Shown: positions 2 to 21,756 of the stretch, one piece after another
Layout of the letters: the number at the start of each line of letters is the position of its first letter
How positions within the stretch are numbered: the first letter of the stretch is position 1
DNA from: a virus
Taxonomy: Duplodnaviria; Caudoviricetes
IMG/VR virus record: IMGVR_UViG_3300025282_000066
Location: 1-45,490 of that record
Length of the DNA stretch: 45,490 bases
Reading direction: 5' to 3' (one strand)
Notes under the pieces: model-generated
Database searches by the model: none
Seen by the model: the letters and a program-made list of their open reading frames with translations, nothing else
What the model was told of the DNA's origin: nothing
Program-made: the position numbers and the translations under genes

Positions 2-3000
2 GAGGCTACAGCCCGTGAAGGTGCCCAAACAATCCCTGTATATGTAAACCTGACAAATCCCCTACGACTAGAGGGCGGAGCTCTTGCGTTTACGATGGCA
101 AATGTGTACAACGAATCTATGGATGCTATGCTTGTCGCCCGGCGAGAGGGTGGTCCTGCTTTGTTGGCTGACAAAGTACGGGCGGAAGTTAAAAGAATGA
201 GTAAAATGGAGATGGGGGATGAAGCTGCCGAGGTGTATTTCAAGTTTATGAATTCTCTGGGGTATGACGGTATTGTTTATAGGCAAATGGTACAAGGTGA
301 ACATAAGAGCACCGTTGTTATTGCGTTTGACCCTGCGAATGTGAAATCACCTTTTAACCGTGGAACATGGGGGCTTGCTGAGCCACGGATGCTCCTCCAA
401 AGTGATGAGACCTTTGATGCACAACAAACAGAGGAATATCTAAACAATCATTGGATTTCAAAATTATCAGACGAGGAACAAACGGCATTGGGGATAGAGT
501 GGAACGGGAGAAGGGTGGAACAAGAGAGAGGCGAGAGGGGTGAATTGGGGGAAGATTGGATTCCAAGCTGGATTGAAGGAGTTAGTTCGGAAGAGCAACT
601 AAGAATACAGGATATTGACAATTACTTTCTTCTAAAAACATTTCAAGCCAGACTGGAGTTTTTGAAAAGACTGAATGAGAATATAGCAAAAGTTGAGGAT
701 GAGCTAACGGAAAAAGCGCCTCCAAAACCTCCGGAAGTCTTAACACCCTCTTTGTTTAAAAAGACGCTTTCAGAAGTTCTAAGAAAGTTTAGACTTGGAA
801 CCTATAAGAAAAGACATAAAGCTATCTTTGAGGCTATGGCAACAGTAGTTGGTGGTAGAGAGGTATTACAACAGTTAATAGATAATGAGAAACTAGTTAT
901 AACTCTAGTAGTAAAGACAACAGAAGAAGGTTTAACACCTTTTCGACAGCCGAAAGATTACAAAGCATTCTTTGCTCCATTTTCCCTTGGACTCAAAGGG
1001 GGTACTATTCCCGGAATTGAGATGGGTATTGATACAAAACTAAAATTAAATGCTTATGCTGTAATAGCAGCTCATGAAGGTTACCATTTTATATGGGATA
1101 CAAAGCATCGTAATAAGAGATTGCTACTACGAAAAATTTGGGCTGAGAAACTTTTAGATAAGTTTTCACAAACTGAAACTGGCAAAGCTTTAATGAAAAA
1201 ATACTCAGATCATTTTGATTCTGCTGTAGAACAGGGTAGTACTATAAATCTTCCGATTCTGGAGTATCAATTGCTTCTTGATGAGCCCGCTTTCCAAAGC
1301 GGAAAAAGGCGTGGCCGTATTCGAGTAGCTTATTCTCGACAAGAAGCAGCATTAATAGATAAGGAAGTTTATTTATATCACGCGAAAAGACAATATCTTC
1401 TGTTGATAATAGACCTATTAAATGAAGCACACTCTGATAAGAAAGCTTTGAGAGATATACAAGAGGAAATGGGAAGGCCTTTAACTTGGAAGGAGGCTAA
1501 GAAGACTTTTGGTCTTAGGCCTAGAACAGAAGAGTTCACTAGTAGATTTATTCAAATAAGAGACCTTTCTACTACGGTATTTGGAGAAGACCTTTTTTCA
1601 GATAAGCAACTACTGACTGAGCTTGACTTTGAGGAGGCTCGGCGTCAGGGTGGGTTTGCCAAGCCTTTACGAAACTCTTTCGCATATCTTTTAATCTATA
1701 TGAGGCGAATGGAAATAATTAAAAGAGCAGGTATTAAAATACCTAAAAAAGATTGGTCCGATTATGTTTTTTTAAAAAAGCTTCTTGTGAAAGCACCCGA
1801 ATATATGATGAACTTCTCCACTCCCAAAGTCATGATGCAGTTAATGGAGAACCAAGGATTAACAATTGAACCCCTTACTCCTGAAATAGTAGATTTTATG
1901 GGAGAAACAAAAGAAAAGGGTTACTTTTATCATGGAACTACTGCTCATCCTGATAATCTCACCGATATCTTTAACACTTCTATAGGAGCTGGACTACATA
2001 TAACTACCAATCCTTTTGTAGCTGGTAGATTTACAGAAGGAGATTATGGAAGAGTATACCTTCTATACGCAAGAGCAGAAAATCCTCTAAGAGTAAGAGA
2101 TATAGATAATTTTAAATCTGTAGGAGGACTTGCTACCGCTATTGCAGATGCCTTGATCCCACATGGCACGACGGCATATGCGAATCTTCTGGCGATGCGT
2201 TCGGCTTTAAAGGAAGAAATTTTAACGAAGATAACGAAAGAATGGCACTATAGAATAGAGACTAAAAAATGGTCTAGAAGAAAATATATGAATAAAAGTT
2301 CACATGTAGACCCAAGGATTCTCGAACTAAGAACTGAGGTTATACAGGATATTATAAAAAGCTATGGTTATGATAGTCTTGTTTATTTAAACCGAGGAGA
2401 AATTCGTGATAGACGCACGGGGAAAGAACCAGAAAATCTATATAATAAAATGGCTAAATTAAGAGCTATGGAATTTGATAGAACTGGTGAATATTTCTCT
2501 GAGGGTCGTGATACTCGATACCTGCATTCTATTACTGATGACGAATTTCGAGCAGAATTTCCTGAAGCAACAGATAGTTATATAATTTTTAACCCTTCTC
2601 ATGTTAAATCTGCTATAGCAAATAACGGAGACTTTGATTTAAATAAGTCTTCTATATTAATGCAGACCGCAGATCTGGAAACCCAACACCTAATTGATGA
2701 AGCCACAGCTTGGGCTTCTTGGGTCGAAGGATTAAGATCAATCTCTATAAATGCAAAGAAGTTTAAAAGGACTGAGGGAAAGCGATATACGGAAAGTTAT
2801 CGTATTTGGGGTACAATGCCCGGCTTCTTTAGAGATATACGAAAGGGTCCCCATATAACTTTCAAACCTGCTTTGTTGGATCAAGAAGAACAAGGTACTT
2901 CTTTCGCGGATGTAATAAATCACAGAAATGAAGAGACTAATTATTATGATATAGATAAAGTTATAATGATGGCTGAATACGAGCATACTAGAGCTGTGGG

Positions 3001-6000
3001 TAGATTACAAGGTTGGCATAAAGTTGCTCGTCAAGATCTTTTAGAAGCTTTGGAAAACGATCTCATGGCTGGAGACGCTATAAACTATTTTGTAGCATTA
3101 GAGTTTATAACAAGAGTAGAGAAAGCCTTTAGACCTCTCTATAAAGAAGCTAAAGGAAGATATGGTTTCATAAGTCATCTTAAAGAAGATACAGGCGAAC
3201 CAGTATTTCTAACAAATAAACATGACGTACAAGCTTTTACAGAAATAGTAAGAAGAGCTATAAAATCTAGACTTGATAAATATATTGCATCTGAGAGTGG
3301 ACACAGAGATCTAAATAAATTAGAACCTATTCTGGGTATTTTGGGATACACAAGAGATAAAGATTTTGTTAGCTTAAGTATAGATCATGTTACTAGTATG
3401 ATTATAAAACATATGGGTAAACTAACTCCTGAGGGTGAACAGATCAAGTGGTCTATAGAAGCTTTTGGTAATGGTGAAATTGATTGGGCTCCGGCTGTAG
3501 AAATAGGAGCGGGCTTAGTAGACTTACTCACAGGATCGCCTCTCGCTGTTCAAAGAGGAATAGAAAGTAATGTTCTCCATAATGAAGATATTCGAACAGA
3601 AGAACAAGATCCCGGCGGGGAATCTATTCGGCTTCGTCAAACTCGACGGGGTGAGAGTAATAGATCTGCCCCGATATCTTTGTTTCACTTGGCTAGTGTA
3701 GTTAACCAGTATCGTTTTATGAAGAGAATTAACTATCTTTTACAGCATGATGAATTTACTCCAGAACAAAGAGAAGCTGTCGAAGCATGGATAGAAAAAG
3801 TTAATAGCGAAGGTACACCTAATCCTCTGGGCTTTAGGGCTGGTTTTAGAGTTAGTCCTCACTATATGGGAGGATTCTTAGATCAAGTAATACCTTCCAA
3901 AGAAACACTAACGGAATGGGGTTTGACGTTTTTATTAGATTTACCAAACTTAGCCCATAGTGTAATTCATGATCAAATCTCTGTTTCTCAAAATAATCCT
4001 TTGCGGTTCAGAGGAGATTTAAAAAACTTTTCAGAGGATTTCTCACATGGGGATGATATTATATTACCTTTCCATTGGTGGGGTGAAGTTTTATCTTATG
4101 AACAAATGTCTCCTACGCTTGAAGGATTAAGCGAAGGTTTACTAGACTATGAAGCTGCTCGTTATAGGGAGTGGCGTGAAGCCAACCCAGACTTAAGTAT
4201 TACTGATTTGTTCTCTGTACAAACACATGTTGACAGAACAGGTAGCGGTAGGTGGGAAATGAAAGCCCTGTCTTTGGCCGCCGATCCCGGAGCTATAGAT
4301 GCTTTAGTTAGTGAACTTAAAGATACACATGGTACAAAAACAATATCAAAAGAAATAAAAAGAGATGGCTTATTTAATACTATCTTAACGCACCGAGGGT
4401 TTACTGAGAAAGATCTTTCAGATCATTATTTAGGTTTAGCTTTAGAGGTAGCACAACTTATTACTTCTCATAGAAACCACGAAATTGTAAAAGCCTTAGG
4501 ACCTATGCTTACAGCTTTTGGACAACTCGATGGAATAACAACTGTAGAAGAATTAATAGAAAGAAGCGAAACAAACGATATCATTAAAACTTTACGGAAA
4601 GTTTTTAAAGTACCTGCAATGCGTTTTATATACGAAGGTACTATGAGAAACTTTAAAAAGGAGTTTATCCTAGCAAACAAAGGTAAGGCTAGAGAGGCTA
4701 TATTGGAATTAGGAGAGCTGTTAGGTTATGATTTCTATGGGAAAAACCACGAAGAACTAGAAGCCTTAGCGACAATACTTTATAAGGTTGGCGTTAATAA
4801 TATGTCTATAGCTTTACAAGAGGCTTCTTTAGGCACAAGAAAGAAACCAAGTCAAGTTTCAATTACCGAAAGAGGAACTGGAATAAGCCATGCTATGAGA
4901 ACTGCGGTAATGAAATACCTCTCTTTGAATAGATCCACCGATGCTAATATAACATTAATTCCAGAACTTGCTGAAGGTTGGAAGGCTGTTATTAAAGCTA
5001 AGTCTCTAGAAGATCCAAAGTCTGGTACGGGCGTTGAGGCTATTGTGGTTAATGAAGAAACTGGAGCAGAACACCGAGTTTCTTTAGATATTACAGAAAT
5101 TTCTGACAAGCCTCAAGAAGCTGACAAGAAGAATAGTCTTATCAAAGCCGACGAAGCCTTAAAACTTTTTGAAGCCGCTTTAAAGAAAGCAGCTATTTAT
5201 GACTTTGGAGAAGACGTTGATTTTGAAGAAGCTATGGAAAAAACTAGAGAAAGGTATACAAATTGGAGTAAGATTCAGGCTTATCTAAAAGAACGAAGGA
5301 ATCGATTCCTTACAATAGGAGAACTTAATGAACTTAAGGCCATGGCTTATCCCAGTACTCCCCAAACAGATATGGCTGTCTTTAGAGGTCTTAATATGTT
5401 AGGGGCCGCAACCTACCAAATAAATCTTGAAAGAGCACAGTTATTAGCTGATGCTATGGGGATTGCTGGTTTTGATGCCGAAATTCAGCTCGCTAGTATG
5501 ATGAATAAGAATATGTATTTCCCTGTGGGATATTCAACTATGTCTGATAGAGGTTATCCAGGTTTACAAATTATGTCTACTCTTACAGGTATAGCTTTAG
5601 AAAGAGCTGCTGTAAGACCTTTAAGAATTAGGGATAACACAACCGGAAAGATGGTTGCCTTCCCTTATAAGAGTTTTGAAGAATTTATAAAGGCTAAACA
5701 AGAAGCCTTTGAAGCTACAGGAGGAGTCTGGGATAAAGCTAAACTTAGAGAGACCTTTAAAGAATTCTTAAGAGATGTAGAGAATGCTGAGGAATCTCTT
5801 GGTTTATATGATACCGCAGATAATCCTTTCCATAAATTATCTAGAGAAGATGCAAAGAAGAAAGTAGAGGATCTAATAACCTTACAGCAATTTATCTGGT
5901 GGGCTAGTTATGAAGCTCCTCCAGCTTCTGTATTCCCTGATTATACTACTGAAGTTTCTGATGAAGCCTTATTACAAGAGCTCCAAGAAGATTGGACCAG

Positions 6001-9000
6001 TCACTCAGAAAGAATGTATAAAGAATTACCTAGAGAAATGGAGATAGAGGTTAACGATGCTAGTGATCAAGAATTAAAATTAAAAGGTAAGGCATCATTG
6101 ATACGTAGTAATGAAGCTAGTAAAAAGACAGGATACCCTATTCAACTATACCATAGAAGTGAGGTAGATGATAGTCGATATATAGACTCAAGTAATCCAA
6201 AGGGGTTTATGTCTACGCAACCTTTATATCAATCCTTACCTTTCCATGATAGAGGAATATTGGCTTTTCAGAGAAGAGCTTTACAGAATAAAGTAGACAG
6301 TCTGTTAGGACCAATTGCGGGTCTTCGAGAAGTTATAGCGCCAATTCCCGGCGTAGATAACTCTCTTGGGTGGGCTTCTCCTTGGAGCGAAAAAACACTA
6401 CCCGCTCGTAGAACAACACTAGCCGAGTATCTACAGCTTTATGGTAAAAATGAAGAGGGAATGTTAGCAGGAACTATAGCAAGAGATTTAGATACTTGGG
6501 CTAGTCGTAGAGGTTTATTAAATGAATTACACGATAAACCTGAATTCTATCCTTATTACTTCTTGATTAGAGAAATTGAAAAAACCTATCAAAGATTTGT
6601 AAAGTATGCTAGATCAGAAATGTCTGAGGAAGAGTTGATATTTAGAAGATCTGAGTGGTTAACTGCTCTCCATAAATTAGACGAGGTATCACGTAATATT
6701 GTTGAGTATGAACACTCTGGTCTAACTTTAGATGGTAAGGCTAGTCTGTTGGCTTTGGTCCGACCTATCCATGATAAAGCTACTTGGAAAGAGATTCTAA
6801 CAAGTACTGTTACCGAAGATCATGCAGAAGGTAAACTTCTTTCACCAACACTAATACACACAGAACTTAAAGCTCCTCTAATGCCAAGTGAAGGTACGCC
6901 TATATTTGAAACCGCGGAAGATAAAGCTTATTGGGATGAGCATATTGGTGAAGCTCATTGGAAAGATATAGTAAATGAATTAACTATAGGGTCTGGTATT
7001 ATCCAAGCCCATGATTTTAATCGTTTCTTAATGGTTCCACTTTACCAGTCCTATATTAGTGAAGTCTTAAAAACATACAAAAGACCCGATGGTACTAAGC
7101 CTTATGCAGATTCTTCTATCTATAAAGATCCTAGAAAGTGGGAAGAAGCGGTAGAAAGACAAGATAGAAAAGAAATTATTAGACGGGCAAAAAATATAGC
7201 GAGAGGCTCAAAAGGTGTGTCGATAATGTTAGATATCTCGGTTGTAGAGTATGCCGATGAAAATAATCCAGATGGTCCTAATCTTGTCAAGCTTATGGTT
7301 GAAAGTGCCGTTGGTCAAACTGTACAAAAAGGAAAAACTAAAACAGAAGTCTCTTTTAATAGTAGACACGCATCAGCTGAAGTAGGCTTTGGTTTCTTAA
7401 GTAGAAGTCCTAGAATATATAAACTTATTGGTGGCAGGTTTAAGATCCATTTAACTCCCGAAGGTGCTCTTAAGTTATTTGGAATTACAGATAATATAAG
7501 ACCTTTAGACGAGTTACAAAATGCTGCTATATCGAATAAAATCTTTGGGGTTAAGTTTGATCAAAACAATGAACCACTTAGGGCTAAGCCTTTACAAGAC
7601 ATAATTAGAGATGCTATTGGTTTTACTACTAGACATCAAATAGAAGAAGCAACTAGAATTAGCGATGCTTTAAACCTAATTGTTAGGCAATCACGGGCCG
7701 ATAAATCTCAAGGTCCTCGTATGATTTCTCATAAACAAGTTACGATAGATCAATTTGGATTAGACGTAGTAGATCTTCACGCTTATAAGACAGGAGAAAT
7801 AGCTCCTCCAGAAGGAAGAACACTTGCTTGGAGAGAAGCTGTTCTCTCACCAATTACAGAATTTCTTCATAGTATAGAAGAAGAAAATCTTTTTAATCCT
7901 TACTTCGATATTCATGCTGAGTTAACCTCTCTTATAAAAAGAGTAAGAGAAGATGTTGGCCCAAGTTATCAACATGCTTTAGGAATCTCTATTGCCCTAT
8001 CCTCCTTAATGATTAATGGGGCTTCAAGAATTCCTTCTGATAGTATGATTATACCCTTCCTTGATCCTCAAATCTACAACACTAGAAGGATAGCCGACAG
8101 CGGTAAAGTCGATATTGATCCCCTTATCAATGAAGCACAGGCCTTATATAGAAAGCTTGTTATTTTCCAAGACTCAGATTCCTTTATTAAGACTTTACCA
8201 GTTTATCACGCTGCGAGAACTTTTGCTTTTGAAATGAGTCTAGATCCCGCTGCTGATATTGAAACTAGTACCGAAGAGGTGTTTATAAACTGGCTTAAGG
8301 AAAAAGGATTATATGAGTTTGATTTAGGTCAGCCAGCGAAAAGCAGTTTCCTTGAATTTGAGGCTGGTCGAGATACTGAACCAAAAATCTATTATAGCTA
8401 TAATCAACATTTAGAAAATTATAAACCCGGCCTGTCTGATGAGGAAAAAAGAAGACAGCTTATCCTGTTGTCTTTAGATGCTGCTCTATCTCATCAAGAA
8501 ACTGCTAACAATCTAAGGGTAGAGTTTGATCAGACTAATCTTGATTCGGAAGAATCAGAGTTAGATACACTTAAGAGTGTATTCTTAGGTAATGTATCTA
8601 AAGACCATGATACGGCTCTGAAATTTGCAGAGACTAGAGATAATATAACTAGACCACATTTAAGAAGAGTATTGAAAAAAATACAGGGTATGGAAGAAAG
8701 AGGAATAGTTAAAGGAAAAGAAACACGATTACTGAGACAACTAATCTTAAACGCTTATGCTATGAATCCTTTGATAGTTAGAGATCTCATGTTTGATTTA
8801 GAAGCCCATTCTATTAAATCTGGTAAAACTGAAGAAGGACAATACTATATTAGATTTGGAGAACGGTTAAAGAGAATAGGAAAGGATCCTCTAGATATTG
8901 TACAAATCTTTGCTCATGAGGTTTCTCATATTGCTAGGGCTAAATTTATCTCAAGCAATTCAGGAGAGTGGGATGCTTTTCAGGCTCTCTTGAGAGGACG

Positions 9001-12000
9001 AGGAAAAGGTCTTGTAAAGAAATTAGTAATGGCATGGCATGGTAATAGATGGAATTCGTCTGCCCAAGAAGAGTATAACAACTATGTAACCAAAGGTCCC
9101 GAAGAATTTATAGCAGCATTGGGACAGTTCTTCTTATTAAAAGATATGTTACCCACAATTAAAAATATGACTACAGAAGAAGCTAAGACTCTCCAAACAG
9201 CTTTGGGGTTTGTGGGCAGGATTATGTCTTTTGTCCGGAATGTATTCTCAGATCTAGATCATGTGTGGTCTCGATTCTTTGTTAGTAATGATGAAGTGAA
9301 TATTTTAATGCATAGATTATTTGGACTAGATATAACAACACCAAACTATAGTCAAGTCTTAGATGTAGAAAATACTGGTCCCCTTACCTTTAATTGGATG
9401 AATAGATTTACTGATGATGATTGGCAACTATCTGAGGGACAACGAGGTACTATGGAAGAAATAGATGCTAGATTTGAAGATGCAGTTGATCATAGAAACA
9501 TATTAGAAATGATGCAAGAAAAAGGTACTATTACCGATGAACAGCTACGTAAGTTAAATAGTCTTCGTAATATGACAGACAGACGTTTAGAAAGCGGGAT
9601 TAGTATTTTTGAATTCTATGACCATCTTCCACATACTATGGCAAAGTTTGGTACCGATGTTAGTATGGGAGACCATACTTGGCAAGTATTAGACCTAGAA
9701 GCTGTATTAGATTCTTCTTTAGGAAACTCCACTGAAATACAACTAGATAGAATAGTTGCTTTCCAGTATGGTGTAAATCAAATGAGACATAAGTTTGGGA
9801 ACCAAATTCAAGATAATGCTGGTGAATTTGCTATGCGTATGAGTAAAGCTTTAGGTAAACTGGGAAGATTTATGGGACTCGGTAGAAATAGAACAGTAGA
9901 TGAAGACCCTATCAGAACCAGAGTACTTAGTGGTATCGCCGGGCATACTGGTAATGAGTATACTTGGGCAGCACCACATATTATTCCTATCTGGTTAACT
10001 ACGCTTATTGATGAGCATATTACTAATACCAGAGGACATTATGATACTCTAGAAGGACTTCCTTCTTTAAGAAAATCTTTAGAAGAAGTAGTCAATGTCG
10101 AAAATGTCTTATTTAGATTACACGGTGTATTACAAAATGAGCTCCTTAGTCCACTCGCTTCTTTTATAAAAGGAGATAACACACCCGGTAAAAAAACCAG
10201 AGAGATTCTCAAGGAAGTAAGTGCTGCTTTTACTTTATTAGTAGAAAACGAAACAGAGACAGATCTAGGATTTTCTGAAGAAACAAAAATTAGATTGGCT
10301 AATCTTAGCCCTAAAAAAAGAGAACTCTTCTATTCTACAATAAAAGAAATGGCACAGGTTATGCGAAGTCTTATGGAAAATATTCAAAAGTCTCGCCAAG
10401 ATTTAGGTGACTGGACAAGTGCAGCTGATTCTTTGATGGGTTACAAACTAAGTCAAGAGATTAAACAAGGGACTAATTCTTCTACTATGTTCGATGCTAT
10501 GAATGAAGAAATACATAACAGGCTATTAGATAATACCCATGACTTTGTAGATCCCTTAACTTTATTTGCCATGAATGCTTTACCCCGTTTCGATACAACA
10601 GAAAACTTAACAGAAGATCTTTTCGGTCCAAAAGGATTGTATGGAAATAAAACAGAACCCTCATCTTTATACGTTCTTTTGATTTCACAATTAGCTAAAA
10701 CTATGGATGAAACCTTTAGTTCTGAAGAAAAGGTATTAAACGCATCTCTTGATCCTGTAAAACAAACAAAGGTTGATGATTTTGTTAGAAAGTTTAAAAC
10801 CTTATTTGAGGATGGAGTTTTAAAAGAAAAGTATCTCTCAGGTTTTAGAATTACTATACAGAAACTAATGAGAGATATGGCTTCTGGAGAAATCACTTGG
10901 TCAAATCTTAATATAGCACATGTGGATAAACTAAAATTTCAATACCATCATTATTTAAAAGAATCTGGTGGTAAAGATGCTACTCATGATATGAGGGTTG
11001 ATAAGAGATTCCAATCGTTGTTCCTTAATAGAGATTCCTTGAGTTTCTTAGAACAGTCTAGAGGAGCTATAGCTTTTGAAATGCCACAGGGACGTATGCC
11101 TTTGTTAGAAGAAAGGTCTTTAACTACTGGGAAAATTTATAATGTAACCCAACTCCATACTCGAAACTTTATGAATCGTGCGTATATGGGACACTACTTA
11201 CCTAATGATGCTTGGTGGATTCCAAAAGTTAGTCAAGCTATTAGAAATCCTATAATTAGAGAAAACCTTACACTACATCCTGTTGAAACTATTAGAAGTC
11301 TAAAGAAGGGTTTGGCAGATACTACACATGAGAGAATGATCCTTCAATACCACTTAGGGATGCGTGGAGACATAGGCCACTTACTTGCTTTGTTTAAGTA
11401 CTTTAATCAGGTGGGAGATTTACATGATATGGCAGGAAATAAAGCTAGTGAGTCTGTTAGAAAAGCCATGACTAAAAGTGTAGAATTCTTAGAACAAAAA
11501 TATGCATTCTTAAGAGGCTTCCAAGAAGAAGGAACATCCTATGGTACTATGGCTGACTGGGCTTTTGAGATGGCTCCTTCAGTTACTAAGATAGCCTTTG
11601 CAGGTAACTTGGGTATTGCTTCTCTTACCGTAGAACATATGATGAATACTTTTGTAACTATGATAGGAGAAAAGAAATTATTAAATGGATTTAGAACAAT
11701 GTTTGCTCCTGTCTTTCATGGTTTATCCAGCGAAGAAACAAAATTAGTAGCAAGTGATATTGCTGATGCTGTAGAAGGAATGACACAAGGCTTCTTACCT
11801 GAGTATGAGCAAGCAGCAAGTGAAGCTGAAGCTGTATTTGGTCAGGATTTTACTAACAAGTGGGCTAGTCAAATGCTGAGATTTCCAAAACATGTTCTTA
11901 GGTCTTCCGCAACAGCTAGAATTATTACATTAAGAAAGGGTATCTACTCCCTTCTTCACAGTAATCCTGCTAAAATAAAAGTACTACTTGATCACATTGA

Positions 12001-13225
12001 AAAGAATCCATTAAAAGAGCCGGGTGATCTAGAAAGAGCCGTAAGAAAATCAAAGATTAGTTGGTGGAGTTATGGAAAAATATTAACGTATCTACAACGA
12101 TCAGGTTTACTGCATCCTGATAGAACAGAAAACTTGGCTGTTGTTTTAGAACTTGGTAATGTGAAAGATAAGTTTTATACTATAGGTAAAGTTGTCTCAC
12201 AACTGTCTGCTAGATTTGATGGTAAATCTGATTCTTATCGAAACTACATGTCAATCCTATCAGCTTTGCGACATGTGGAAAGACAATATTTAAATGAAGT
12301 AGTTGTCTCTCCTAATGCTTTTGATATCTATACAGGCTCTGATAGAAGATCACGAGCAGCAGAAATCTTTAGAAGATTCCCAGTATTATGGGCTTCTCAA
12401 ATGATGATTAGAAGATCTAACAATATGCCATTGCTAGCTTATGGAACCTTTATGGTTTCTATGTTAACTCTAGATATGATCTATATGATGTCTTTACGTC
12501 TAGCAGCTGGAACTTCTTATGAAGATCTAATGAAAGAAATAGAAGACAAGGGCTTTGGAAAGTTTATGTTAACGTATGGAGCTAGATTACCTCTTTGGGG
12601 TAGGTATTATGGTTGGATTGCTGCTGCTGCTGTAGCCCTAAGTAGAGATAATAGAATCGAGGGAGGTTTTGTTCCTGCCGCAGCAATGGCTCAGATACTT
12701 CAAAATATGTACAAATTAGGTATGTCTCCGTGGACTGATGATTATACTCAACAAGATCTAATCAATGCTTCTAGAATTCTCCCCATATTAGGAGATACAC
12801 TAGTAAGATTAAGTGTATATTCTGCTTGGGGAGATCAAATATCTAAGAAGAATCGAAGCAGACGAGGATATGGTAGTCCCTCTTCACAGTTCCAATATAC
12901 ATATACACATATGGGAGTACCTCCAGAATATGATTCAATGTCTTATGAAGCAGTAATGGGCGAGTGGTTTAATGAGATGGGACTAGAGCCAGATTTCCTA
13001 GCCTATGAGAATCAATTCAAGACATTACCGGGAACTAGATCTAATTGGGAGCAGATGGAACAGGAGACCCATATAGACCCTGAGAAGGCTGCGAGAAGAG
13101 ACATGCCCTCCAGACCCTCCGAGATCCTTAGAAGGCCTGAGGCGGGCTCTCAGAGGCTTACAGTGGATCCTATTGAAGCTATCAAAGAAGAGCCGATTCT
13201 AGAGATACCAGAGGAGTTCAGATAA
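2..13225 (+). CDS. Giant polyvalent (probable virion/ejection) protein, 5'-truncated by the window: two ART-PolyVal-like ADP-ribosyltransferase domains, two HExxH zincin-like motifs and a putative T7/N4-type RNA polymerase domain
   Basis: The frame of ORF 95..13225 is open back to base 2 (EATAREGAQTIPVYVNLTNPLRL). ART-like signatures: YDGIVY...VIAFDPANVKSPFNRGTW and YHGT...GLHIT...YARAENPL...GYDSLVY...YIIFNPSHVKSAIANNGDFD. HEGYH at 1073; HEVSH at 8915 followed by EEFIA at 9101. RNAP-like motif A VDRTGSG (4232) and motif B RKVFKVPAMRFIYEG (4595). Confidence 0.8.
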   Translation, partial: EATAREGAQTIPVYVNLTNPLRLEGGALAFTMANVYNESMDAMLVARREGGPALLADKVRAEVKRMSKMEMGDEAAEVYFKFMNSLGYDGIVYRQMVQGEHKSTVVIAFDPANVKSPFNRGTWGLAEPRMLLQSDETFDAQQTEEYLNNHWISKLSDEEQTALGIEWNGRRVEQERGERGELGEDWIPSWIEGVSSEEQLRIQDIDNYFLLKTFQARLEFLKRLNENIAKVEDELTEKAPPKPPEVLTPSLFKKTLSEVLRKFRLGTYKKRHKAIFEAMATVVGGREVLQQLIDNEKLVITLVVKTTEEGLTPFRQPKDYKAFFAPFSLGLKGGTIPGIEMGIDTKLKLNAYAVIAAHEGYHFIWDTKHRNKRLLLRKIWAEKLLDKFSQTETGKALMKKYSDHFDSAVEQGSTINLPILEYQLLLDEPAFQSGKRRGRIRVAYSRQEAALIDKEVYLYHAKRQYLLLIIDLLNEAHSDKKALRDIQEEMGRPLTWKEAKKTFGLRPRTEEFTSRFIQIRDLSTTVFGEDLFSDKQLLTELDFEEARRQGGFAKPLRNSFAYLLIYMRRMEIIKRAGIKIPKKDWSDYVFLKKLLVKAPEYMMNFSTPKVMMQLMENQGLTIEPLTPEIVDFMGETKEKGYFYHGTTAHPDNLTDIFNTSIGAGLHITTNPFVAGRFTEGDYGRVYLLYARAENPLRVRDIDNFKSVGGLATAIADALIPHGTTAYANLLAMRSALKEEILTKITKEWHYRIETKKWSRRKYMNKSSHVDPRILELRTEVIQDIIKSYGYDSLVYLNRGEIRDRRTGKEPENLYNKMAKLRAMEFDRTGEYFSEGRDTRYLHSITDDEFRAEFPEATDSYIIFNPSHVKSAIANNGDFDLNKSSILMQTADLETQHLIDEATAWASWVEGLRSISINAKKFKRTEGKRYTESYRIWGTMPGFFRDIRKGPHITFKPALLDQEEQGTSFADVINHRNEETNYYDIDKVIMMAEYEHTRAVGRLQGWHKVARQDLLEALENDLMAGDAINYFVALEFITRVEKAFRPLYKEAKGRYGFISHLKEDTGEPVFLTNKHDVQAFTEIVRRAIKSRLDKYIASESGHRDLNKLEPILGILGYTRDKDFVSLSIDHVTSMIIKHMGKLTPEGEQIKWSIEAFGNGEIDWAPAVEIGAGLVDLLTGSPLAVQRGIESNVLHNEDIRTEEQDPGGESIRLRQTRRGESNRSAPISLFHLASVVNQYRFMKRINYLLQHDEFTPEQREAVEAWIEKVNSEGTPNPLGFRAGFRVSPHYMGGFLDQVIPSKETLTEWGLTFLLDLPNLAHSVIHDQISVSQNNPLRFRGDLKNFSEDFSHGDDIILPFHWWGEVLSYEQMSPTLEGLSEGLLDYEAARYREWREANPDLSITDLFSVQTHVDRTGSGRWEMKALSLAADPGAIDALVSELKDTHGTKTISKEIKRDGLFNTILTHRGFTEKDLSDHYLGLALEVAQLITSHRNHEIVKALGPMLTAFGQLDGITTVEELIERSETNDIIKTLRKVFKVPAMRFIYEGTMRNFKKEFILANKGKAREAILELGELLGYDFYGKNHEELEALATILYKVGVNNMSIALQEASLGTRKKPSQVSITERGTGISHAMRTAVMKYLSLNRSTDANITLIPELAEGWKAVIKAKSLEDPKSGTGVEAIVVNEETGAEHRVSLDITEISDKPQEADKKNSLIKADEALKLFEAALKKAAIYDFGEDVDFEEAMEKTRERYTNWSKIQAYLKERRNRFLTIGELNELKAMAYPSTPQTDMAVFRGLNMLGAATYQINLERAQLLADAMGIAGFDAEIQLASMMNKNMYFPVGYSTMSDRGYPGLQIMSTLTGIALERAAVRPLRIRDNTTGKMVAFPYKSFEEFIKAKQEAFEATGGVWDKAKLRETFKEFLRDVENAEESLGLYDTADNPFHKLSREDAKKKVEDLITLQQFIWWASYEAPPASVFPDYTTEVSDEALLQELQEDWTSHSERMYKELPREMEIEVNDASDQELKLKGKASLIRSNEASKKTGYPIQLYHRSEVDDSRYIDSSNPKGFMSTQPLYQSLPFHDRGILAFQRRALQNKVDSLLGPIAGLREVIAPIPGVDNSLGWASPWSEKTLPARRTTLAEYLQLYGKNEEGMLAGTIARDLDTWASRRGLLNELHDKPEFYPYYFLIREIEKTYQRFVKYARSEMSEEELIFRRSEWLTALHKLDEVSRNIVEYEHSGLTLDGKASLLALVRPIHDKATWKEILTSTVTEDHAEGKLLSPTLIHTELKAPLMPSEGTPIFETAEDKAYWDEHIGEAHWKDIVNELTIGSGIIQAHDFNRFLMVPLYQSYISEVLKTYKRPDGTKPYADSSIYKDPRKWEEAVERQDRKEIIRRAKNIARGSKGVSIMLDISVVEYADENNPDGPNLVKLMVESAVGQTVQKGKTKTEVSFNSRHASAEVGFGFLSRSPRIYKLIGGRFKIHLTPEGALKLFGITDNIRPLDELQNAAISNKIFGVKFDQNNEPLRAKPLQDIIRDAIGFTTRHQIEEATRISDALNLIVRQSRADKSQGPRMISHKQVTIDQFGLDVVDLHAYKTGEIAPPEGRTLAWREAVLSPITEFLHSIEEENLFNPYFDIHAELTSLIKRVREDVGPSYQHALGISIALSSLMINGASRIPSDSMIIPFLDPQIYNTRRIADSGKVDIDPLINEAQALYRKLVIFQDSDSFIKTLPVYHAARTFAFEMSLDPAADIETSTEEVFINWLKEKGLYEFDLGQPAKSSFLEFEAGRDTEPKIYYSYNQHLENYKPGLSDEEKRRQLILLSLDAALSHQETANNLRVEFDQTNLDSEESELDTLKSVFLGNVSKDHDTALKFAETRDNITRPHLRRVLKKIQGMEERGIVKGKETRLLRQLILNAYAMNPLIVRDLMFDLEAHSIKSGKTEEGQYYIRFGERLKRIGKDPLDIVQIFAHEVSHIARAKFISSNSGEWDAFQALLRGRGKGLVKKLVMAWHGNRWNSSAQEEYNNYVTKGPEEFIAALGQFFLLKDMLPTIKNMTTEEAKTLQTALGFVGRIMSFVRNVFSDLDHVWSRFFVSNDEVNILMHRLFGLDITTPNYSQVLDVENTGPLTFNWMNRFTDDDWQLSEGQRGTMEEIDARFEDAVDHRNILEMMQEKGTITDEQLRKLNSLRNMTDRRLESGISIFEFYDHLPHTMAKFGTDVSMGDHTWQVLDLEAVLDSSLGNSTEIQLDRIVAFQYGVNQMRHKFGNQIQDNAGEFAMRMSKALGKLGRFMGLGRNRTVDEDPIRTRVLSGIAGHTGNEYTWAAPHIIPIWLTTLIDEHITNTRGHYDTLEGLPSLRKSLEEVVNVENVLFRLHGVLQNELLSPLASFIKGDNTPGKKTREILKEVSAAFTLLVENETETDLGFSEETKIRLANLSPKKRELFYSTIKEMAQVMRSLMENIQKSRQDLGDWTSAADSLMGYKLSQEIKQGTNSSTMFDAMNEEIHNRLLDNTHDFVDPLTLFAMNALPRFDTTENLTEDLFGPKGLYGNKTEPSSLYVLLISQLAKTMDETFSSEEKVLNASLDPVKQTKVDDFVRKFKTLFEDGVLKEKYLSGFRITIQKLMRDMASGEITWSNLNIAHVDKLKFQYHHYLKESGGKDATHDMRVDKRFQSLFLNRDSLSFLEQSRGAIAFEMPQGRMPLLEERSLTTGKIYNVTQLHTRNFMNRAYMGHYLPNDAWWIPKVSQAIRNPIIRENLTLHPVETIRSLKKGLADTTHERMILQYHLGMRGDIGHLLALFKYFNQVGDLHDMAGNKASESVRKAMTKSVEFLEQKYAFLRGFQEEGTSYGTMADWAFEMAPSVTKIAFAGNLGIASLTVEHMMNTFVTMIGEKKLLNGFRTMFAPVFHGLSSEETKLVASDIADAVEGMTQGFLPEYEQAASEAEAVFGQDFTNKWASQMLRFPKHVLRSSATARIITLRKGIYSLLHSNPAKIKVLLDHIEKNPLKEPGDLERAVRKSKISWWSYGKILTYLQRSGLLHPDRTENLAVVLELGNVKDKFYTIGKVVSQLSARFDGKSDSYRNYMSILSALRHVERQYLNEVVVSPNAFDIYTGSDRRSRAAEIFRRFPVLWASQMMIRRSNNMPLLAYGTFMVSMLTLDMIYMMSLRLAAGTSYEDLMKEIEDKGFGKFMLTYGARLPLWGRYYGWIAAAAVALSRDNRIEGGFVPAAAMAQILQNMYKLGMSPWTDDYTQQDLINASRILPILGDTLVRLSVYSAWGDQISKKNRSRRGYGSPSSQFQYTYTHMGVPPEYDSMSYEAVMGEWFNEMGLEPDFLAYENQFKTLPGTRSNWEQMEQETHIDPEKAARRDMPSRPSEILRRPEAGSQRLTVDPIEAIKEEPILEIPEEFR

Positions 13226-13299
13226 ATCGACTAGGGGGTCACGAATTTACACGGGGCATAGGATAGGATAGCTTGTTTGCTATTCCCCCCGTACCCCCT

Positions 13300-13320
13300 T
13301 GTTGCTTAGCAACAGAAAGG
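13300..13320 (+). promoter_or_regulatory. Hairpin-plus-RBS element 1 (TGTTGC-TTA-GCAACA-GAAAGG)
   Basis: 6-bp inverted repeat with a 3-nt loop, directly fused to the Shine-Dalgarno of the ATG at 13330. One of four similar elements. Confidence 0.5.
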
Positions 13321-13329
13321 AGATCCGCA

Positions 13330-13524
13330 ATGGCGTATCTCAAGATGACACGAGATGAATACTCTCGTGTCCATGGTGTCTTTGCCGCAGCCGGTGGCAG
13401 GGATGTCAAGGGTGTGTCCGCTGAATTGGAGCGGGCCCACACGCATATCGTAACGCTGGGCGTGAGGCTAGACCTTACGCTCGTCGTTCAGCAGAAGCTT
13501 GCCCAAGAGGCAGGACTCCGCTGA
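13330..13524 (+). CDS. Hypothetical early protein (64 aa)
   Basis: GAAAGGAG RBS before ATG 13330, in frame with track ORF 13273..13524. Confidence 0.7.
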   Translation: MAYLKMTRDEYSRVHGVFAAAGGRDVKGVSAELERAHTHIVTLGVRLDLTLVVQQKLAQEAGLR

Positions 13525-13563
13525 AACCATGGGCTAAGCTACGGCCCTCAACGGTAGCATGAA

Positions 13564-13584
13564 GTCCCATTAGGGACAGAGAGG
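13564..13584 (+). promoter_or_regulatory. Hairpin-plus-RBS element 2 (GTCCC-ATTA-GGGAC-AGAGAGG)
   Basis: 5-bp stem followed by a purine-rich RBS before ATG 13592. Confidence 0.45.
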
Positions 13585-13591
13585 TTCTATT

Positions 13592-13954
13592 ATGAACACC
13601 ATGACCATAACCATTATGAGTCTGTGGGACGCATCAACACATGAGTATGATGTTATCACAGATGAGTGGGATCAGCATATTAAGCCAGAAGTTCTTCTGG
13701 AGAAAGTGTTCGTCCGACAACAGGATGACACTAAAGATGTGCCTAACATACCTTCGATGTGTGCAGGTGATATCGTTAGTGTTAGCACTATTCCGTATAG
13801 TGCGATGCTCGACGGTTTCATGGACAGAAAGAAAGTAGAAAGGAGTGCTCGGTTTCTTTGTACGGCAAACGGATGGAAGAGATTGACCCTTGAGCTCTTC
13901 TACCAGTGGACAACGTCTTCTTCGCTAGAACGAATGCTTCTAGCACGCAAATAG
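13592..13954 (+). CDS. Hypothetical early protein (120 aa)
   Basis: ORF with RBS. The PSMCAGDIV...FLCTANGW segment resembles small phage YodL-like proteins, but the resemblance is weak. Confidence 0.7.
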   Translation: MNTMTITIMSLWDASTHEYDVITDEWDQHIKPEVLLEKVFVRQQDDTKDVPNIPSMCAGDIVSVSTIPYSAMLDGFMDRKKVERSARFLCTANGWKRLTLELFYQWTTSSSLERMLLARK

Positions 13955-13985
13955 GCACAGCTGTCAGCCTTCAATGGCAGCACAT

Positions 13986-14010
13986 TGTCCCTCGTCGGGA
14001 CAGAAAGGGA
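13986..14010 (+). promoter_or_regulatory. Hairpin-plus-RBS element 3 (TGTCCC-TCGTC-GGGACA-GAAAGGGA)
   Basis: 6-bp stem followed by an RBS before ATG 14012/14018. Confidence 0.45.
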
Positions 14011-14017
14011 TATGATC

Positions 14018-15790
14018 ATGAAGATCAAGATTCCCAACAAGACCGTGGCATCCCTCAAGGAAACCACGGACGCAGCCACGGAGCTGTGCTTCGAGGCTCA
14101 CTCGGAGTACGTGGCTGATCTCTACAATCGTGGTAGAGAAGCAGATGAGTTCGTGACTCGTCTGAGGAAGGATGTCCTGTATACCACAGGGCTGACCTTT
14201 AGCGTGCCATTGGCACGTAAGACACACTCGTCCATCTTGGAGGCGTACCTCAAGTACAAGCCCAAGAAGGAGGGTGCATACCCGTTCTACACCTTGGAGC
14301 CAAGCGGCAAGTTGCCTATCGTGACTCGGAATCCGAGCATGGAGGTGGGGGCCGACTGGTCCCAATCCGTCAAGTACTTCGGTACGTGTGGGCATCTGGT
14401 CGATGGCCGGATGCTGGAAGCGGTGTCTATCCACCGCAATGCTCTGCTCCACAGTGGAGCAGATGATGCAACGGATGATGCCGAGAATTATCTGCCACTA
14501 CACGTGTTGCAGATTCTGGCTAAGATGTATGGAGAGGAACAGGAATGCTTCGTCTCCTACCACCAACTCCAAGAGTCAGGGCGGATGATAGAAGAGCTCA
14601 GGGGTGGGGGCTCTGCTAACAACAAGATCTCACGAGCGGTGCTCCTGGATACAAACTTCGTGGTTTGTGATAAGGAGAACCTTGAGATCCTTGAGAACTG
14701 TATCCGAGCCAAGTACGGTGTCTCAAGCAAGATCAAGGACTGGGCATCACGAGTCCTTAATAAATACGATGTGTCAGATCACCACAAGTGCGAGGAAATC
14801 AATCTCGCCTGCTGTTGGAGAGACATCATCACCAAGGGTGGGTCTCATCACACGGTTGAGATCGATGCCCATACCAGTGGCATGGTTCACATGCTCATGC
14901 AAGTGGGACTGTGGATTCGACGAGACATCTGTGCTCGTACTAAGGGATGGGAGAAGCTCTATACTCGCATCGCTAGGATGATCAGGATGTCCTGCCCATG
15001 GGCTGGGCATCTACCCATGAGTGAGATCATGGCAATCGCTAAGAAGGTGATGTCACCTTCCATGTACGGTGGTGGGTCCACTGCCATCGTACCGCAGTTC
15101 TTCAAGAATGTTAAGCATGGAGATGGAAACTGGGTCTTCCCATCTCGCAGCTTGGTAGTTCCCGACTACTACCAGCCATTGTTCAATGAGACCATAAAGG
15201 TCTATGACAAGGGTGTTGGTCATCATGTAGATATCCTGTCGGATACTCAAGATGGGCTCACATGCTTCGACAAGGAAGTCACAAAGAAGTACTCCCAGTA
15301 CTTCCGCAAGTGCTTCCCATTTGTGAAGGGTAGAGGTAAGGAAGATCCCGGACTGTTCGGAAAGTTCATCTCTCATGGTGAGGCCAATCCGAATGGATTG
15401 ATGAAGCTTGCGGGTATGCAGGTACAAATCCATCCGTTCACAGAAGACAAGCTTCGTAAGGTAGGCGTAACAGCCTACGATGCAGAAGGTTACAGGCACA
15501 GCACTGGTGTCTATCCTCTGGTCGAGAGCAGCTACACTGACCTCATGGCGAAGCATACTCACCTACTGGACAGCTACCAGATGGCCTTGTTCGGATGCAT
15601 GGCCGAAGAAGAGGGCGTGTGTGTACGTCCGATCCTCGATGCTGTCAAGGTTCCAGCCGGGAAACTCAAGTGGGCCTTAGAGGCAGCATCACAAACATTC
15701 CTGCATGTCCATGCCAAGCCTCGCTTCCCCGTAGGAACCGAAGGCTTCAAGGCATGGCAAGGCGAAGCCCCCAGCGTTTGGGGCTTCTGA
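14018..15790 (+). CDS. Compact, divergent T7-family single-subunit RNA polymerase-like protein
   Basis: Motif A VEIDAHTSG (Asp at 14864), motif B KKVMSPSMYGG (15041), AKHTHLLDS matching T7 PNFVHSQD (15551), motif C PILDAV (Asp at 15638), in T7 RNAP order and spacing. Start moved from TTG 13985 to the RBS-supported ATG at 14018 (14012 also possible). Confidence 0.7.
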   Translation: MKIKIPNKTVASLKETTDAATELCFEAHSEYVADLYNRGREADEFVTRLRKDVLYTTGLTFSVPLARKTHSSILEAYLKYKPKKEGAYPFYTLEPSGKLPIVTRNPSMEVGADWSQSVKYFGTCGHLVDGRMLEAVSIHRNALLHSGADDATDDAENYLPLHVLQILAKMYGEEQECFVSYHQLQESGRMIEELRGGGSANNKISRAVLLDTNFVVCDKENLEILENCIRAKYGVSSKIKDWASRVLNKYDVSDHHKCEEINLACCWRDIITKGGSHHTVEIDAHTSGMVHMLMQVGLWIRRDICARTKGWEKLYTRIARMIRMSCPWAGHLPMSEIMAIAKKVMSPSMYGGGSTAIVPQFFKNVKHGDGNWVFPSRSLVVPDYYQPLFNETIKVYDKGVGHHVDILSDTQDGLTCFDKEVTKKYSQYFRKCFPFVKGRGKEDPGLFGKFISHGEANPNGLMKLAGMQVQIHPFTEDKLRKVGVTAYDAEGYRHSTGVYPLVESSYTDLMAKHTHLLDSYQMALFGCMAEEEGVCVRPILDAVKVPAGKLKWALEAASQTFLHVHAKPRFPVGTEGFKAWQGEAPSVWGF

Positions 15791-15798
15791 TATACCTC

Positions 15799-15818
15799 GT
15801 CGCTTAGCGACAGAAAGG
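15799..15818 (+). promoter_or_regulatory. Hairpin-plus-RBS element 4 (GTCGC-TTA-GCGAC-AGAAAGG)
   Basis: 5-bp stem with a TTA loop, fused to the RBS before ATG 15827. Confidence 0.5.
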
Positions 15819-15826
15819 ATAGCACC

Positions 15827-16336
15827 ATGGCTATCAAGACCATCATCGTTCCTACTCGTTCTTCACAGAAGTACTCCAATGCGTTGGAGTGTCACGCTGC
15901 CAGTCACCCCACCATGGGTGAGGGCAGGCTGTACTTCTACCTGTCCAAGGACAAGAAGAGTCGGGTTGCCCGCTTCTTCCCCAAGGACTGGGAGAATGGA
16001 TGCTTGTATGTCCGAGCAACCGATGGCTTCCCTGTTGACAAGACAGTGAAAGAGATGGGTGAACACATGGGTCTTGACCATGTGTTGGGACAGATTAACA
16101 TCCCGTCCAACTTCAGGATCTCCAGTACCTGTAAGTTCTACCTCATGGACAGCCCTGAGTTTGAGGATAACACCCTCACGTTCAGCCTTAGGTGGAACAA
16201 GATGACTAAGCAATTCACATGTCCCTTCGAGATGGATCCCACATGGGATGAGGAAGTACTGGGTACTGAATGCTTCGAAGCTATTCAGAGATTTGTCTGG
16301 CAGCAATGGCACGGCTGTGGACTGTATGGTGGCTGA
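15827..16336 (+). CDS. Hypothetical protein (169 aa)
   Basis: ORF with GAAAGGA RBS and the same GC3-rich codon style as the neighbouring early genes. Confidence 0.8.
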   Translation: MAIKTIIVPTRSSQKYSNALECHAASHPTMGEGRLYFYLSKDKKSRVARFFPKDWENGCLYVRATDGFPVDKTVKEMGEHMGLDHVLGQINIPSNFRISSTCKFYLMDSPEFEDNTLTFSLRWNKMTKQFTCPFEMDPTWDEEVLGTECFEAIQRFVWQQWHGCGLYGG

Positions 16337-16386
16337 TGATTTGACCGGGGGGTTACTACCTTGGGCTACCGCCTGAGGTAGAAATT

Positions 16387-16418
16387 TTGACACCTCCTCC
16401 GGGGGGATTGATATAAAT
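16387..16418 (+). promoter_or_regulatory. Possible host sigma70-type promoter
   Basis: TTGACA at 16387 and TG-A-TATAAA at 16409-16417. The 19-nt spacer is non-optimal. Confidence 0.3.
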
Positions 16419-16600
16419 GACTATATACTTATATAGAGAACGGCATGTAGTTGCTAGTGTTACCTACTATATGTAGTGGGTCTATATAGTTGGAGTATAT
16501 AGTAGAACCTAGGGTATAACTATAGTTAGATAGGTGTTTATAATTATATAAGGATTACTCCTATGTTCTATAGAATACCTTAAGGAGTACGTGGTATCTT
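16411..16600. other. AT-rich non-coding tract with multiple short palindromes (possible origin or regulatory region)
   Basis: CTATAT-ACTT-ATATAG, CTATATAG, TAACTATAGTTA, TTCTATAGAA, CCTTAAGG; no credible ORF. Confidence 0.4.
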
Positions 16601-21477: not shown

Positions 21478-21756
21478 ATGAAAAAAGACGTTGATCAAAA
21501 CTTTGGTGGATCTTTCAATGCCCACAAACATTGGAAAAAGTTACGTGAGAAGCATCGTAAAAAGGAAGCTCAAGAAGCAAGGGGTATATTTAGCCGAGCC
21601 CAACCAGAGACCTATCAACCCAACAACCAAACAATAGAAGGTTCTGAAAGAATAATATCAAAAGAATTGTATGATCTTAATTATGAGCTTGCTTTTGGTA
21701 GAATTACTAAAGAAGAATACGAACAAAGGAGATCAGAACTTGATTTGGGAGAGTGA
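21478..21756 (+). CDS. Hypothetical protein
   Basis: AAGGA RBS. The C-terminal GRITKEEYEQRR resembles a SHOCT-like helix. Confidence 0.7.
   Translation: MKKDVDQNFGGSFNAHKHWKKLREKHRKKEAQEARGIFSRAQPETYQPNNQTIEGSERIISKELYDLNYELAFGRITKEEYEQRRSELDLGE

Follow-up and report, generated by a model that had tools for sequence, protein, structure and literature searches.

A T7/N4-type RNA polymerase core, probably with reordered blocks, in a giant protein of an uncultured T7-like phage

Introduction

The locus described here raises the question whether a giant open reading frame of an uncultured phage (Caudoviricetes) encodes a virion RNA polymerase like that of coliphage N4, and if so, where its active-site residues are found. 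The N4 enzyme, gp50 (Schitoviridae), is a protein of 3500 amino acids, with the mini-vRNAP at residues 998-2103. The DNA analysed, called the window in what follows, is the whole stretch of 45,490 nt of IMG/VR record IMGVR_UViG_3300025282_000066, and all coordinates given below are on its plus (+) strand. A sequence-only reading had proposed a T7/N4-type polymerase domain within a giant N4-vRNAP-like protein, and conservation, language-model features and structure comparison agree on this. The interpretation that we favour, and hold to be rather probable, is that this core is likely active, probably has the block order C-A-B-pre-thumb-DxxGR, is likely packaged and ejected, and would transcribe an adjacent cassette of genes preceded by hairpins.

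The giant gene and its family

The 3' part of the giant gene (4407 codons) occupies positions 2..13225, its 5' end lying beyond the window edge. The ATG at position 95, earlier taken as the start, was the wrong choice, since the reading frame reaches the window edge without a stop, and in a locus with 99.9% identity (L001:2354-19831, protein P0001) the full-length protein has 5825 aa. Residue numbers are counted here from ATG 95 (window numbering); as this codon is not the start of the 5825-aa protein, 1449 must be added to obtain full-length numbers. Counted in this way, the residues quoted in the sequence-only reading are all at their places: QTRRG at 1182 (nt 3638), D1380, R1501-K1505-Y1513, PFHDRG at 2049 (nt 6239) and QAHDF with D2307 (nt 7013).

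Conservation was mainly judged from an alignment of 31 family rows, most of which share 15-32% identity with the window protein, a few being near-duplicates; the partial row L016 was excluded. The giant gene is located late in the structural module, downstream of another large gene of no assigned function, and it follows the terminase region in 3/5 complete relatives having a terminase match. The giant protein is likely an internal virion or ejection protein.

Motifs A and B and the fingers

The polymerase region is preceded by a conserved N-terminal flank (3452..3727), in which G1125, G1127 and R1211 are invariant in the 31-row alignment. Motif A (4217..4273) contains D1380 (nt 4232), the equivalent of T7 D537. 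This residue is invariant in 31/31 rows and is kept in 42/43 and 49/49 rows of deeper alignments, it ends a short strand before a helix in both AlphaFold2 models, and a profile match to a T7-anchored set, to which motif sites were not supplied, brings residues 1376-1393 into register with T7 533-550, so that the earlier proposal of D1380 as motif A is borne out. The proposed motif B, R1501-x3-K1505-x7-Y1513, stands as well, with the Lys and the Tyr present in 31/31 rows and the Arg in 28/31. It lies with the fingers helices at 4583..4897, a stretch that matches T7 623-695; the profile match places residues 1497-1524 on T7 623-650 (motif B itself at about T7 623-651), and the structurally aligned range takes in this motif. 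Motif A, motif B and the fingers are thus kept in the family, and in the predicted models they fold like T7 RNA polymerase.

Two AlphaFold2 models were compared with known structures, a small one of residues 1240-1615 (pLDDT 85.2, pTM 0.77) and a large one of residues 1120-2319 (pLDDT 75.8, pTM 0.72). When the small model was compared by VIA with 48,161 chains, Z reached at least 5 for only two of them, human mitochondrial RNA polymerase (Z 6.4, rmsd 4.2, 135 residues aligned) and T7 RNA polymerase (Z 6.4, rmsd 3.1, 126 aligned), with family A DNA polymerases next; these values, like all VIA scores reported here, are below 8, a range that the tool itself rates as inconclusive when taken alone. 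With the large model T7 RNA polymerase came first at Z 7.1, an unrelated helical chain tying at Z 6.9, and in a second VIA comparison T7 RNA polymerase took ranks 1-9 (Z 7.0-7.8), followed by a chain at 5.5. The superposition is limited to about 100-135 residues, corresponding to T7 531-695, i.e., motif A through the fingers. Neither N4 mini-vRNAP nor permuted RNA-dependent polymerases were among the VIA matches listed.

ESM features relate the protein to RNA_pol clusters at 0.90-0.91 and to vRNAP clusters at no more than 0.89, and gave nothing for residues 1750-2400. Standard searches with the polymerase region found no match in Pfam profiles, in PDB sequences (sequence and profile searches), in GenBank phages or in GTDB genomes (one pattern searched), and none of 17 family members matched a vRNAP Pfam at E 0.1. 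Among PHROGs, the only match to the giant protein was one unknown family on its ADP-ribosyltransferase part. Foldseek searches of the PDB and of a viral structure library gave no match at E 0.001, T7 RNA polymerase surfacing only at E 1.7-2.3.

Since the structural match covers only motif A through the fingers, the domain might be derived from a polymerase without being used for transcription, for example as a DNA grip or ejection scaffold, or its activity might be limited to the synthesis of primers or short RNA. Two more polymerases are encoded by the phage, and promoter-binding elements were not found: no counterpart of the T7 H784-x-x-D787 helix, of the specificity loop or of the N-terminal domain could be placed in the giant polymerase. 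We nevertheless consider such a function unlikely, as invariance is centred on the catalytic residues of T7 and N4 (two Asp, Lys, Tyr, Arg) in rows that are 15-30% identical, and a scaffold would not need such residues.

The hairpin cassette and two further polymerases

If the core is indeed an active polymerase, candidate targets are close by. Directly 3' of the giant gene is a GC-rich cassette of four genes, with a short hairpin ahead of every gene. The first hairpin (13300..13321; 6 bp, 3-nt loop), a candidate promoter, is found with GAAAGG before ATG 13330, the second (13564..13584; 5 bp) with GAGAGG before ATG 13592, the third (13986..14008; 6 bp) with GAAAGG before ATG 14018 and the fourth (15799..15818; 5 bp, 3-nt loop) with GAAAGG before ATG 15827. 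Hairpins precede 4/4 cassette genes vs 4/34 other genes (Fisher p 0.001, with a higher GC content in the cassette than in the control). In relatives the stems are altered with pairing kept, and a clear hairpin-start element is missing in 9/24 loci.

The third cassette gene (14018..15790) encodes a compact single-subunit RNA polymerase-like protein of 590 aa, with its motifs in the usual order and a profile match of E 3.5e-26 to yeast mitochondrial RNA polymerase. It is followed by a 169-aa gene of no known function (15827..16336), whose product is a possible cofactor; an ORF of 160-240 aa is present after the compact polymerase in most loci. A third polymerase, an ordinary T7-type RNA polymerase of 837 aa (PF00940, E 5.9e-77), is encoded at 21671..24184, and enzymes of this type are present in 5/5 complete relatives as well as in the window. 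The remaining gene content is also T7-like (primase-helicase, family A DNA polymerase, portal, scaffold and capsid), and the genomes of relatives measure 65-70 kb.

An N4-like cascade of three polymerases in a T7-like genome is likely. The giant protein, judging from its size, position and architecture and from the hairpin cassette downstream, would enter the cell together with the DNA, where it may recognise short hairpins in the DNA in the manner of N4 vRNAP and make the RNA for the compact polymerase. The latter could then transcribe the next tier, T7-type polymerase included, which in turn would serve late genes and those for replication; how these last two tiers follow each other is guessed from the positions of the genes. 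That all of this holds together, i.e., that a DNA-dependent RNA polymerase of family A, its palm reshuffled, is active, is ejected from the virion, reads hairpin promoters and starts a three-polymerase cascade in an undescribed T7-like clade with genomes of 65-70 kb, is in our judgement an even call.

It is also conceivable that the polymerase is active while the hairpins act in RNA, as 5' stabilisers or as processing or translation signals, or mark the borders of a recombining cassette, in which case a host enzyme would read the cassette and the giant polymerase would have other targets or pull DNA in. The hairpins abut the Shine-Dalgarno-like GAAAGG, have loops of 3-5 nt and occur as near-identical copies in different relatives, all of which would suit such roles. 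Their restriction to the cassette adjoining the giant gene (all four occurrences of ACAGARAGG are in the cassette) and the resemblance of their size and sequence-free stems to N4 early promoters (PMC4496689) make this combined explanation quite improbable.

The order of the blocks

In the giant polymerase the usual order DxxGR, A, B, C was not found. Upstream of motif A the alignments contain no conserved GR motif, and QTRRG, once suggested for T/DxxGR, had to be given up, with T1183 in only 2/18 rows. Within 300 residues after motif B they likewise contain no conserved Asp on a hairpin. What does follow motif B is a pre-thumb block (5375..5455) around N1767, which is invariant in 31/31 rows; it is similar to T7 315-341 (E 3.4e-6, against 3 sequences), with residues 1761-1785 on T7 315-339 in the T7-anchored profile match. 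Behind it is a likely equivalent of T/DxxGR (5525..5596), weakly matching T7 417-438, with residues 1816-1826 on T7 422-432 in the T7-anchored set; its R1819 (nt 5549) is invariant in 31/31 rows, and distant rows have G-R-x-Y.

A candidate for motif C precedes motif A (3944..3982), as indicated by conservation, profile and AlphaFold2. It is a predicted beta-hairpin with D1293 (nt 3971) at the turn of its two strands in both models, and this residue is invariant in 31/31 rows and present in 45/46 and 49/50 rows of deeper alignments; residues 1287-1296 weakly match T7 806-815 in the T7-anchored set. None of the VIA structural alignments took in this hairpin as motif C, and one alignment with T7 (rank 6), which starts at model residue 170 (1289) on T7 434, is not in favour of the assignment. 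From sequence and predicted structure, D1293 is likely the best candidate for motif C, and it may form a pair of metal ligands with D1380.

With N1767 and R1819 located after motif B, the sequences suggest that the order is probably C-A-B-thumb-DxxGR: D1293, N1767 and R1819 are invariant and take the corresponding positions (C-A-B-pre-thumb-DxxGR) relative to motifs A and B. The profile matches of the blocks score weakly (E 0.002-0.1), the values for the DxxGR block (11.9) and the QxxD block discussed below (12.6) being barely above those for two negative blocks (10.1 and 11.1). A column-shuffle null was too lenient, the negative blocks passing at 1/83, so its value is not taken as a p value. 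Blocks in reshuffled order would account for the failure of standard profile and Foldseek searches to detect the family. The large insertions or degenerate enzyme previously put forward to explain the distance to motif C probably give way to reordering, as R1819 and D1293 are better candidates than those then considered.

Of the two earlier candidates for motif C, PFHDRG drops out, with D2052 in only 7/19 rows. The second, Q2304-x-x-D2307 (7004..7015; 31-row alignment and profile), is indeed a conserved site, with Q2304 in 26/31 rows and D2307 as Asp in 26/31 and Glu in the other 5, but probably not motif C. Its QxHD, reminiscent of the family A motif C, and one VIA alignment (rank 7) that extends to model residue 1187 (2306) would suit motifs in their usual order, in which an insertion of about 550-600 residues would separate motif B from D2307 as motif C, yet this is highly improbable: Glu replaces Asp in five rows, H2306 is not conserved, the best profile match, weak in score, is to T7 432-444, a helix rather than a hairpin is predicted to follow (with a pLDDT below 50 here, where the model is cut off), the pre-thumb block would still come after motif B, and the invariant D1293 would be left without explanation. 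Two further Asp positions were rejected as motif residues, D1757 with D, E, Q, S, N and others in its column, and D1909 with D or N.

Relation to known polymerases and phages

The core proposed here, with motif C before motif A, is related to the enzymes of T7 and mitochondria by its motif A strand-helix, motif B and fingers, which superpose on T7 531-695 (Z 6.4-7.8), and to T7 also by its pre-thumb block. It differs from both in its probable block order and in being embedded in a protein of 4000-5800 aa. Unlike the order proposed for the giant protein, that of N4 is T420/R424, D559, R666-Y678, D951, and apart from a weak match at motif B no sequence or Pfam match was found between the two.

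For the topology there is a precedent: in the RNA-dependent polymerases of Birnaviridae and Permutotetraviridae, the motif C hairpin precedes A in a C-A-B order, and a normal active site is feasible (PMC4666646). As in these enzymes, the motif C candidate is encoded before motif A, whereas superfamily and template are different, more blocks would be displaced and, in structure, family A polymerases match best. The same source documents such permuted palms for some viral RNA-dependent polymerases; our literature searches found none in the T7/N4/mitochondrial family. Nor did these searches, which covered openly accessible papers without their supplements, find a description of the giant polymerase family; such proteins could be listed in the supplement of PMC5512222.

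With the Autographiviridae the phage shares an own T7-type RNA polymerase and T7-like replication and head genes. It deviates from these phages in the 65-70-kb genomes of its relatives, and no match to the family of T7 gp16, the last internal virion protein, was found. T7 is not known to have a virion polymerase. As in N4, short-hairpin elements precede what are likely the first genes, and these include a second, small polymerase; here this is a single chain, as opposed to the two-chain RNAPII of N4, and the T7-like genome with a third, T7-type polymerase is another difference.

A 2017 survey confines N4-like virion polymerases to N4-like phages (PMC5512222). If our interpretation is true, the clade carries the N4 virion-polymerase strategy into T7-like genomes and links both phage groups, and a natural, conserved reordering would reveal which modules of the enzyme are movable. 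As one genome combines three divergent polymerases with candidate promoters, its transcription programme lends itself to direct testing; polymerases that are compact or read hairpins might also serve as tools.

Accessory domains

The layout of N4 vRNAP, a central single-subunit polymerase with an HExxH peptidase domain behind it and an optional ART fusion (PMC5512222), recurs in the giant protein. An ART-PolyVal ADP-ribosyltransferase domain (residues 611-847, 1925..2635; PF18760, E 8.7e-12) is accessory, being detected by phmmer in 2/27 family representatives. C-terminal of the polymerase, HExxH (residues 2941-2945) and EFxA form a zincin-like metallopeptidase signature (8915..9115); HExxH is found after the polymerase in 23/27 representatives, and its region gave SprT-like matches (E 8e-5 to 2e-3) in 4/12 relatives scanned.

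Conservation of the polymerase region

Relatives of the giant protein, in which the sequence-only reading had proposed a cryptic virion RNA polymerase, were gathered stepwise from viral and metagenome contigs, yielding 96 protein representatives, the complete ones being 4000 to 5800 aa long. No relatives were found in GTDB genomes, searched with one pattern, or among GenBank phages; the polymerase region was also negative against PDB sequences, Pfam and GenBank phages. Residues are numbered here from ATG 95 (full-length number = +1449), as in the sequence-only reading, although this ATG is internal; the reading frame is uninterrupted up to the window edge, and the entire gene of 5825 aa is contained in a locus with 99.9% identity (L001:2354-19831, protein P0001). 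In an alignment of 31 rows, a few of them near-duplicates and with the partial row L016 excluded, the following residues are invariant within 1100-2600: G1125, G1127, R1211, D1293, G1319, D1380, K1505, Y1513, N1767, R1819 and G2037.

The aspartate proposed for motif A, D1380, is thus found in all 31 rows, and in distant rows the motif reads D-x3-(S/N)-G-x-H-H, near the T7 pattern. The assignment of motif B to R1501-K1505-Y1513 holds as well, with R1501 present in 28 of 31 rows. Two other proposals had to be dropped, as neither QTRRG, suggested as the T/DxxGR motif (T in 2 of 18 rows), nor PFHD, a candidate for motif C (D2052 in 7 of 19 rows), is conserved. The remaining candidate for motif C, D2307 in QAHDF, is indeed conserved (26 of 31 rows, Glu in the other five; Q2304 likewise in 26 of 31), but its block, 2301-2313, best matches T7 432-444.

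Order of the motifs

T7 RNA polymerase has motifs A, B, C and DX2GR in common with mini-vRNAP, the polymerase fragment of the giant N4 virion RNA polymerase (vRNAP; PMC4496689). Short-block profiles were matched to a T7-anchored polymerase profile of 29 rows, with T7 and N4 positions verified on the sequence records. The best matches of blocks 1376-1393 and 1497-1524 are T7 533-550 (motif A) and 623-650 (motif B), and 1287-1296 best matches T7 806-815 (motif C), which places D1293 on D812; D537 and D812 are the catalytic pair of T7 RNA polymerase. Further downstream, 1761-1785 best matches T7 315-339 (pre-thumb; E 3.4e-6 with an HMM against three sequences) and 1816-1826 best matches T7 422-432, with R1819 on R425. 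Every block match is weak (E 0.002-0.1, with a shuffle null that is too lenient), and 1816-1826 and 2301-2313 score 11.9 and 12.6, where two negative blocks reach 10.1 and 11.1. Of the sixteen blocks tried, the remaining ten yielded nothing interpretable beyond two faint matches (1902-1929 to N4 mini-vRNAP 465-492 and 1188-1216 to T7 130-158).

The case for a changed block order is built on the landing places of invariant residues and not on scores. The order implied by these alignments is C, A, B, pre-thumb, DxxGR, and since one circular permutation of T7 would not produce it, more than one rearrangement would be implied. A motif C that precedes motif A would be shared with the birnavirus and permutotetravirus RdRPs, for which this order is described (PMC4666646). 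We consider it quite probable that D1293 is the functional motif C.

Predicted structure

AlphaFold2 models were obtained for 1120-2319 (75 rows, pLDDT 75.8, pTM 0.72) and 1240-1615 (55 rows, pLDDT 85.2, pTM 0.77). In both, two short strands are joined by a turn that carries D1293, and D1380 ends a three-residue strand ahead of a helix; the latter strand needs a partner, for which the D1293 hairpin is the likely candidate. Confidence in the small model is lower just N-terminal of D1293 (58 for 1280-1289), and the D2307 region lies at the cut end of the model with pLDDT <50.

Foldseek gave no match at E 0.001. With VIA, the large model ranked T7 RNA polymerase first among 48,161 (Z 7.1, rmsd 3.7, 128 aligned), 1379-1601 being aligned on T7 534-695, with an unrelated helical chain tied (Z 6.9). 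With the small model, Z 5 was reached by human mitochondrial and T7 RNA polymerase alone (both 6.4), most of the next ranks being family A DNA polymerases, and in a second look at 391 chains T7 RNA polymerase filled ranks 1-9 (Z 7.0-7.8; next 5.5). Because T7 and mitochondrial RNA polymerase top these ranks, the predicted fold from motif A to the fingers is that of a family A polymerase, and homology of the A-B-fingers part is nearly certain. The refuting conditions given with the sequence-only reading included the lack of a palm fold and of a second catalytic Asp near D1380; the models answer these only in part, with D1293 as the candidate second Asp. VIA never aligned that hairpin as motif C, which its sequence-ordered ranges could not show; one row began at 1289 on T7 434, which is of no help to this assignment.

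The cassette and the other polymerases

Directly 3' of the giant gene lies a four-gene cassette (13225-16400) of 51% GC versus 37%, a contrast kept in all 24 loci examined. All four genes are preceded by a perfect 5-6 bp hairpin abutting GA(A/G)AGG (window 13300, 13564, 13986 and 15799), and a comparable hairpin occurs at 4 of 34 other gene starts (p 0.001, with a control that was not GC-matched). On visual inspection, similar elements whose stems differ yet remain paired are clear in 15 of the 24 loci, doubtful in five and absent in four. The N4 early promoters are short hairpins too, in which the variable bases of the stem count for pairing only (PMC4496689). Near-identical hairpin copies recur in loci L012, L036 and L044, a possible sign of cassette shuffling.

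The cassette includes a previously unannotated gene for a compact, single-subunit RNA polymerase-like protein of about 590 aa (14018-15790). By itself it has no family match. An ORF of 590-700 codons occurs at the same place in 24 aligned loci; these ORFs were grouped for the most part by position, and all but one close relative share 11-36% identity with the window copy. In them R189, D283 and D541 are invariant, and their profile matches mitochondrial RNA polymerase (E 3.5e-26), T7 RNA polymerase (1e-17) and N4 RNAP2 (1e-7). The compact polymerase-like protein has its motifs in the usual order, and the T7 N-terminal domain is apparently absent. As a T7-type RNA polymerase of 814-839 aa is also present in all five complete relatives tested (21671-24184 in the window; PF00940, E 5.9e-77), three single-subunit polymerase genes per genome are the rule among the genomes checked.

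Possible mode of action

The conserved residues, the partial fold, the cassette and the set of genes are observed; around them, the following scheme can be proposed. The giant protein is most likely packaged and then ejected, and in its reordered core D1293 and D1380 would act as metal ligands, with K1505, Y1513 and R1819 acting as in T7. It may initiate at the hairpins and thereby express the compact polymerase together with the small genes beside it, after which later tiers could be handled by the compact and T7-type enzymes. As a whole, with a packaged and reordered polymerase, hairpin starts and three polymerase tiers, this scheme is somewhat more likely than not to hold. The giant protein is likened to N4 vRNAP in its working mode, but differs from it in sequence, motif order and genome type. 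No description of the family was found in the literature searched, the coverage of which was limited.

Genome context and additional domains

The window covers part of the genome of a T7-like phage, with genes for a primase-helicase, family A DNA polymerase, portal, scaffold and capsid. Of five complete relatives, three have a terminase match 7-10 kb upstream of the giant gene and two yielded none, and an unknown gene of 1300-1700 codons directly precedes the giant gene (L003:1658-5650 and equivalents), in L007 with an exonuclease-like domain. The position of the giant gene fits the ejection-protein slot, without proving it. In L013 it is split over two frames near 15832-15874, perhaps by an assembly error or a frameshift.

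The sole family match of the giant protein is ART-PolyVal at residues 611-847, a window-type ART being detected in 2 of 27 representatives; the tail of a second ART-PolyVal-like domain lies at the window edge (2-350, E 1.8e-6). Of 27 representatives, 23 have an HExxH...EFxA signature C-terminal of the polymerase, and the HExxH peptidase signature is absent from four giants (L049, L064, L065 and L068). HExxH is matched four times in the full protein, and an additional HEGYH motif is located at window 1073-1087. An RNase_H_2/DnaQ-like exonuclease domain, absent from the window protein, follows the polymerase in P0003-P0006, near window residue 2735 (in P0004 a nuclease-like insert is also visible by eye), and precedes it in the distant L053-L068 clade, near residues 500-760.

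AT-rich, TATA-type short repeats 3' of the cassette (16400-16620) possibly mark an origin, a packaging region or a genome end. A long stretch poor in ORFs and rich in hairpins and tRNA-like sequences (repeat families D1, D2 and D10) lies at 16900-17900, with further such sites at 24256, 26972 and 27123. Among the replication genes are a weak citrate synthase C-terminal match (26415-26975, E 5.8e-5) and a sulfotransferase gene (30367-31020).
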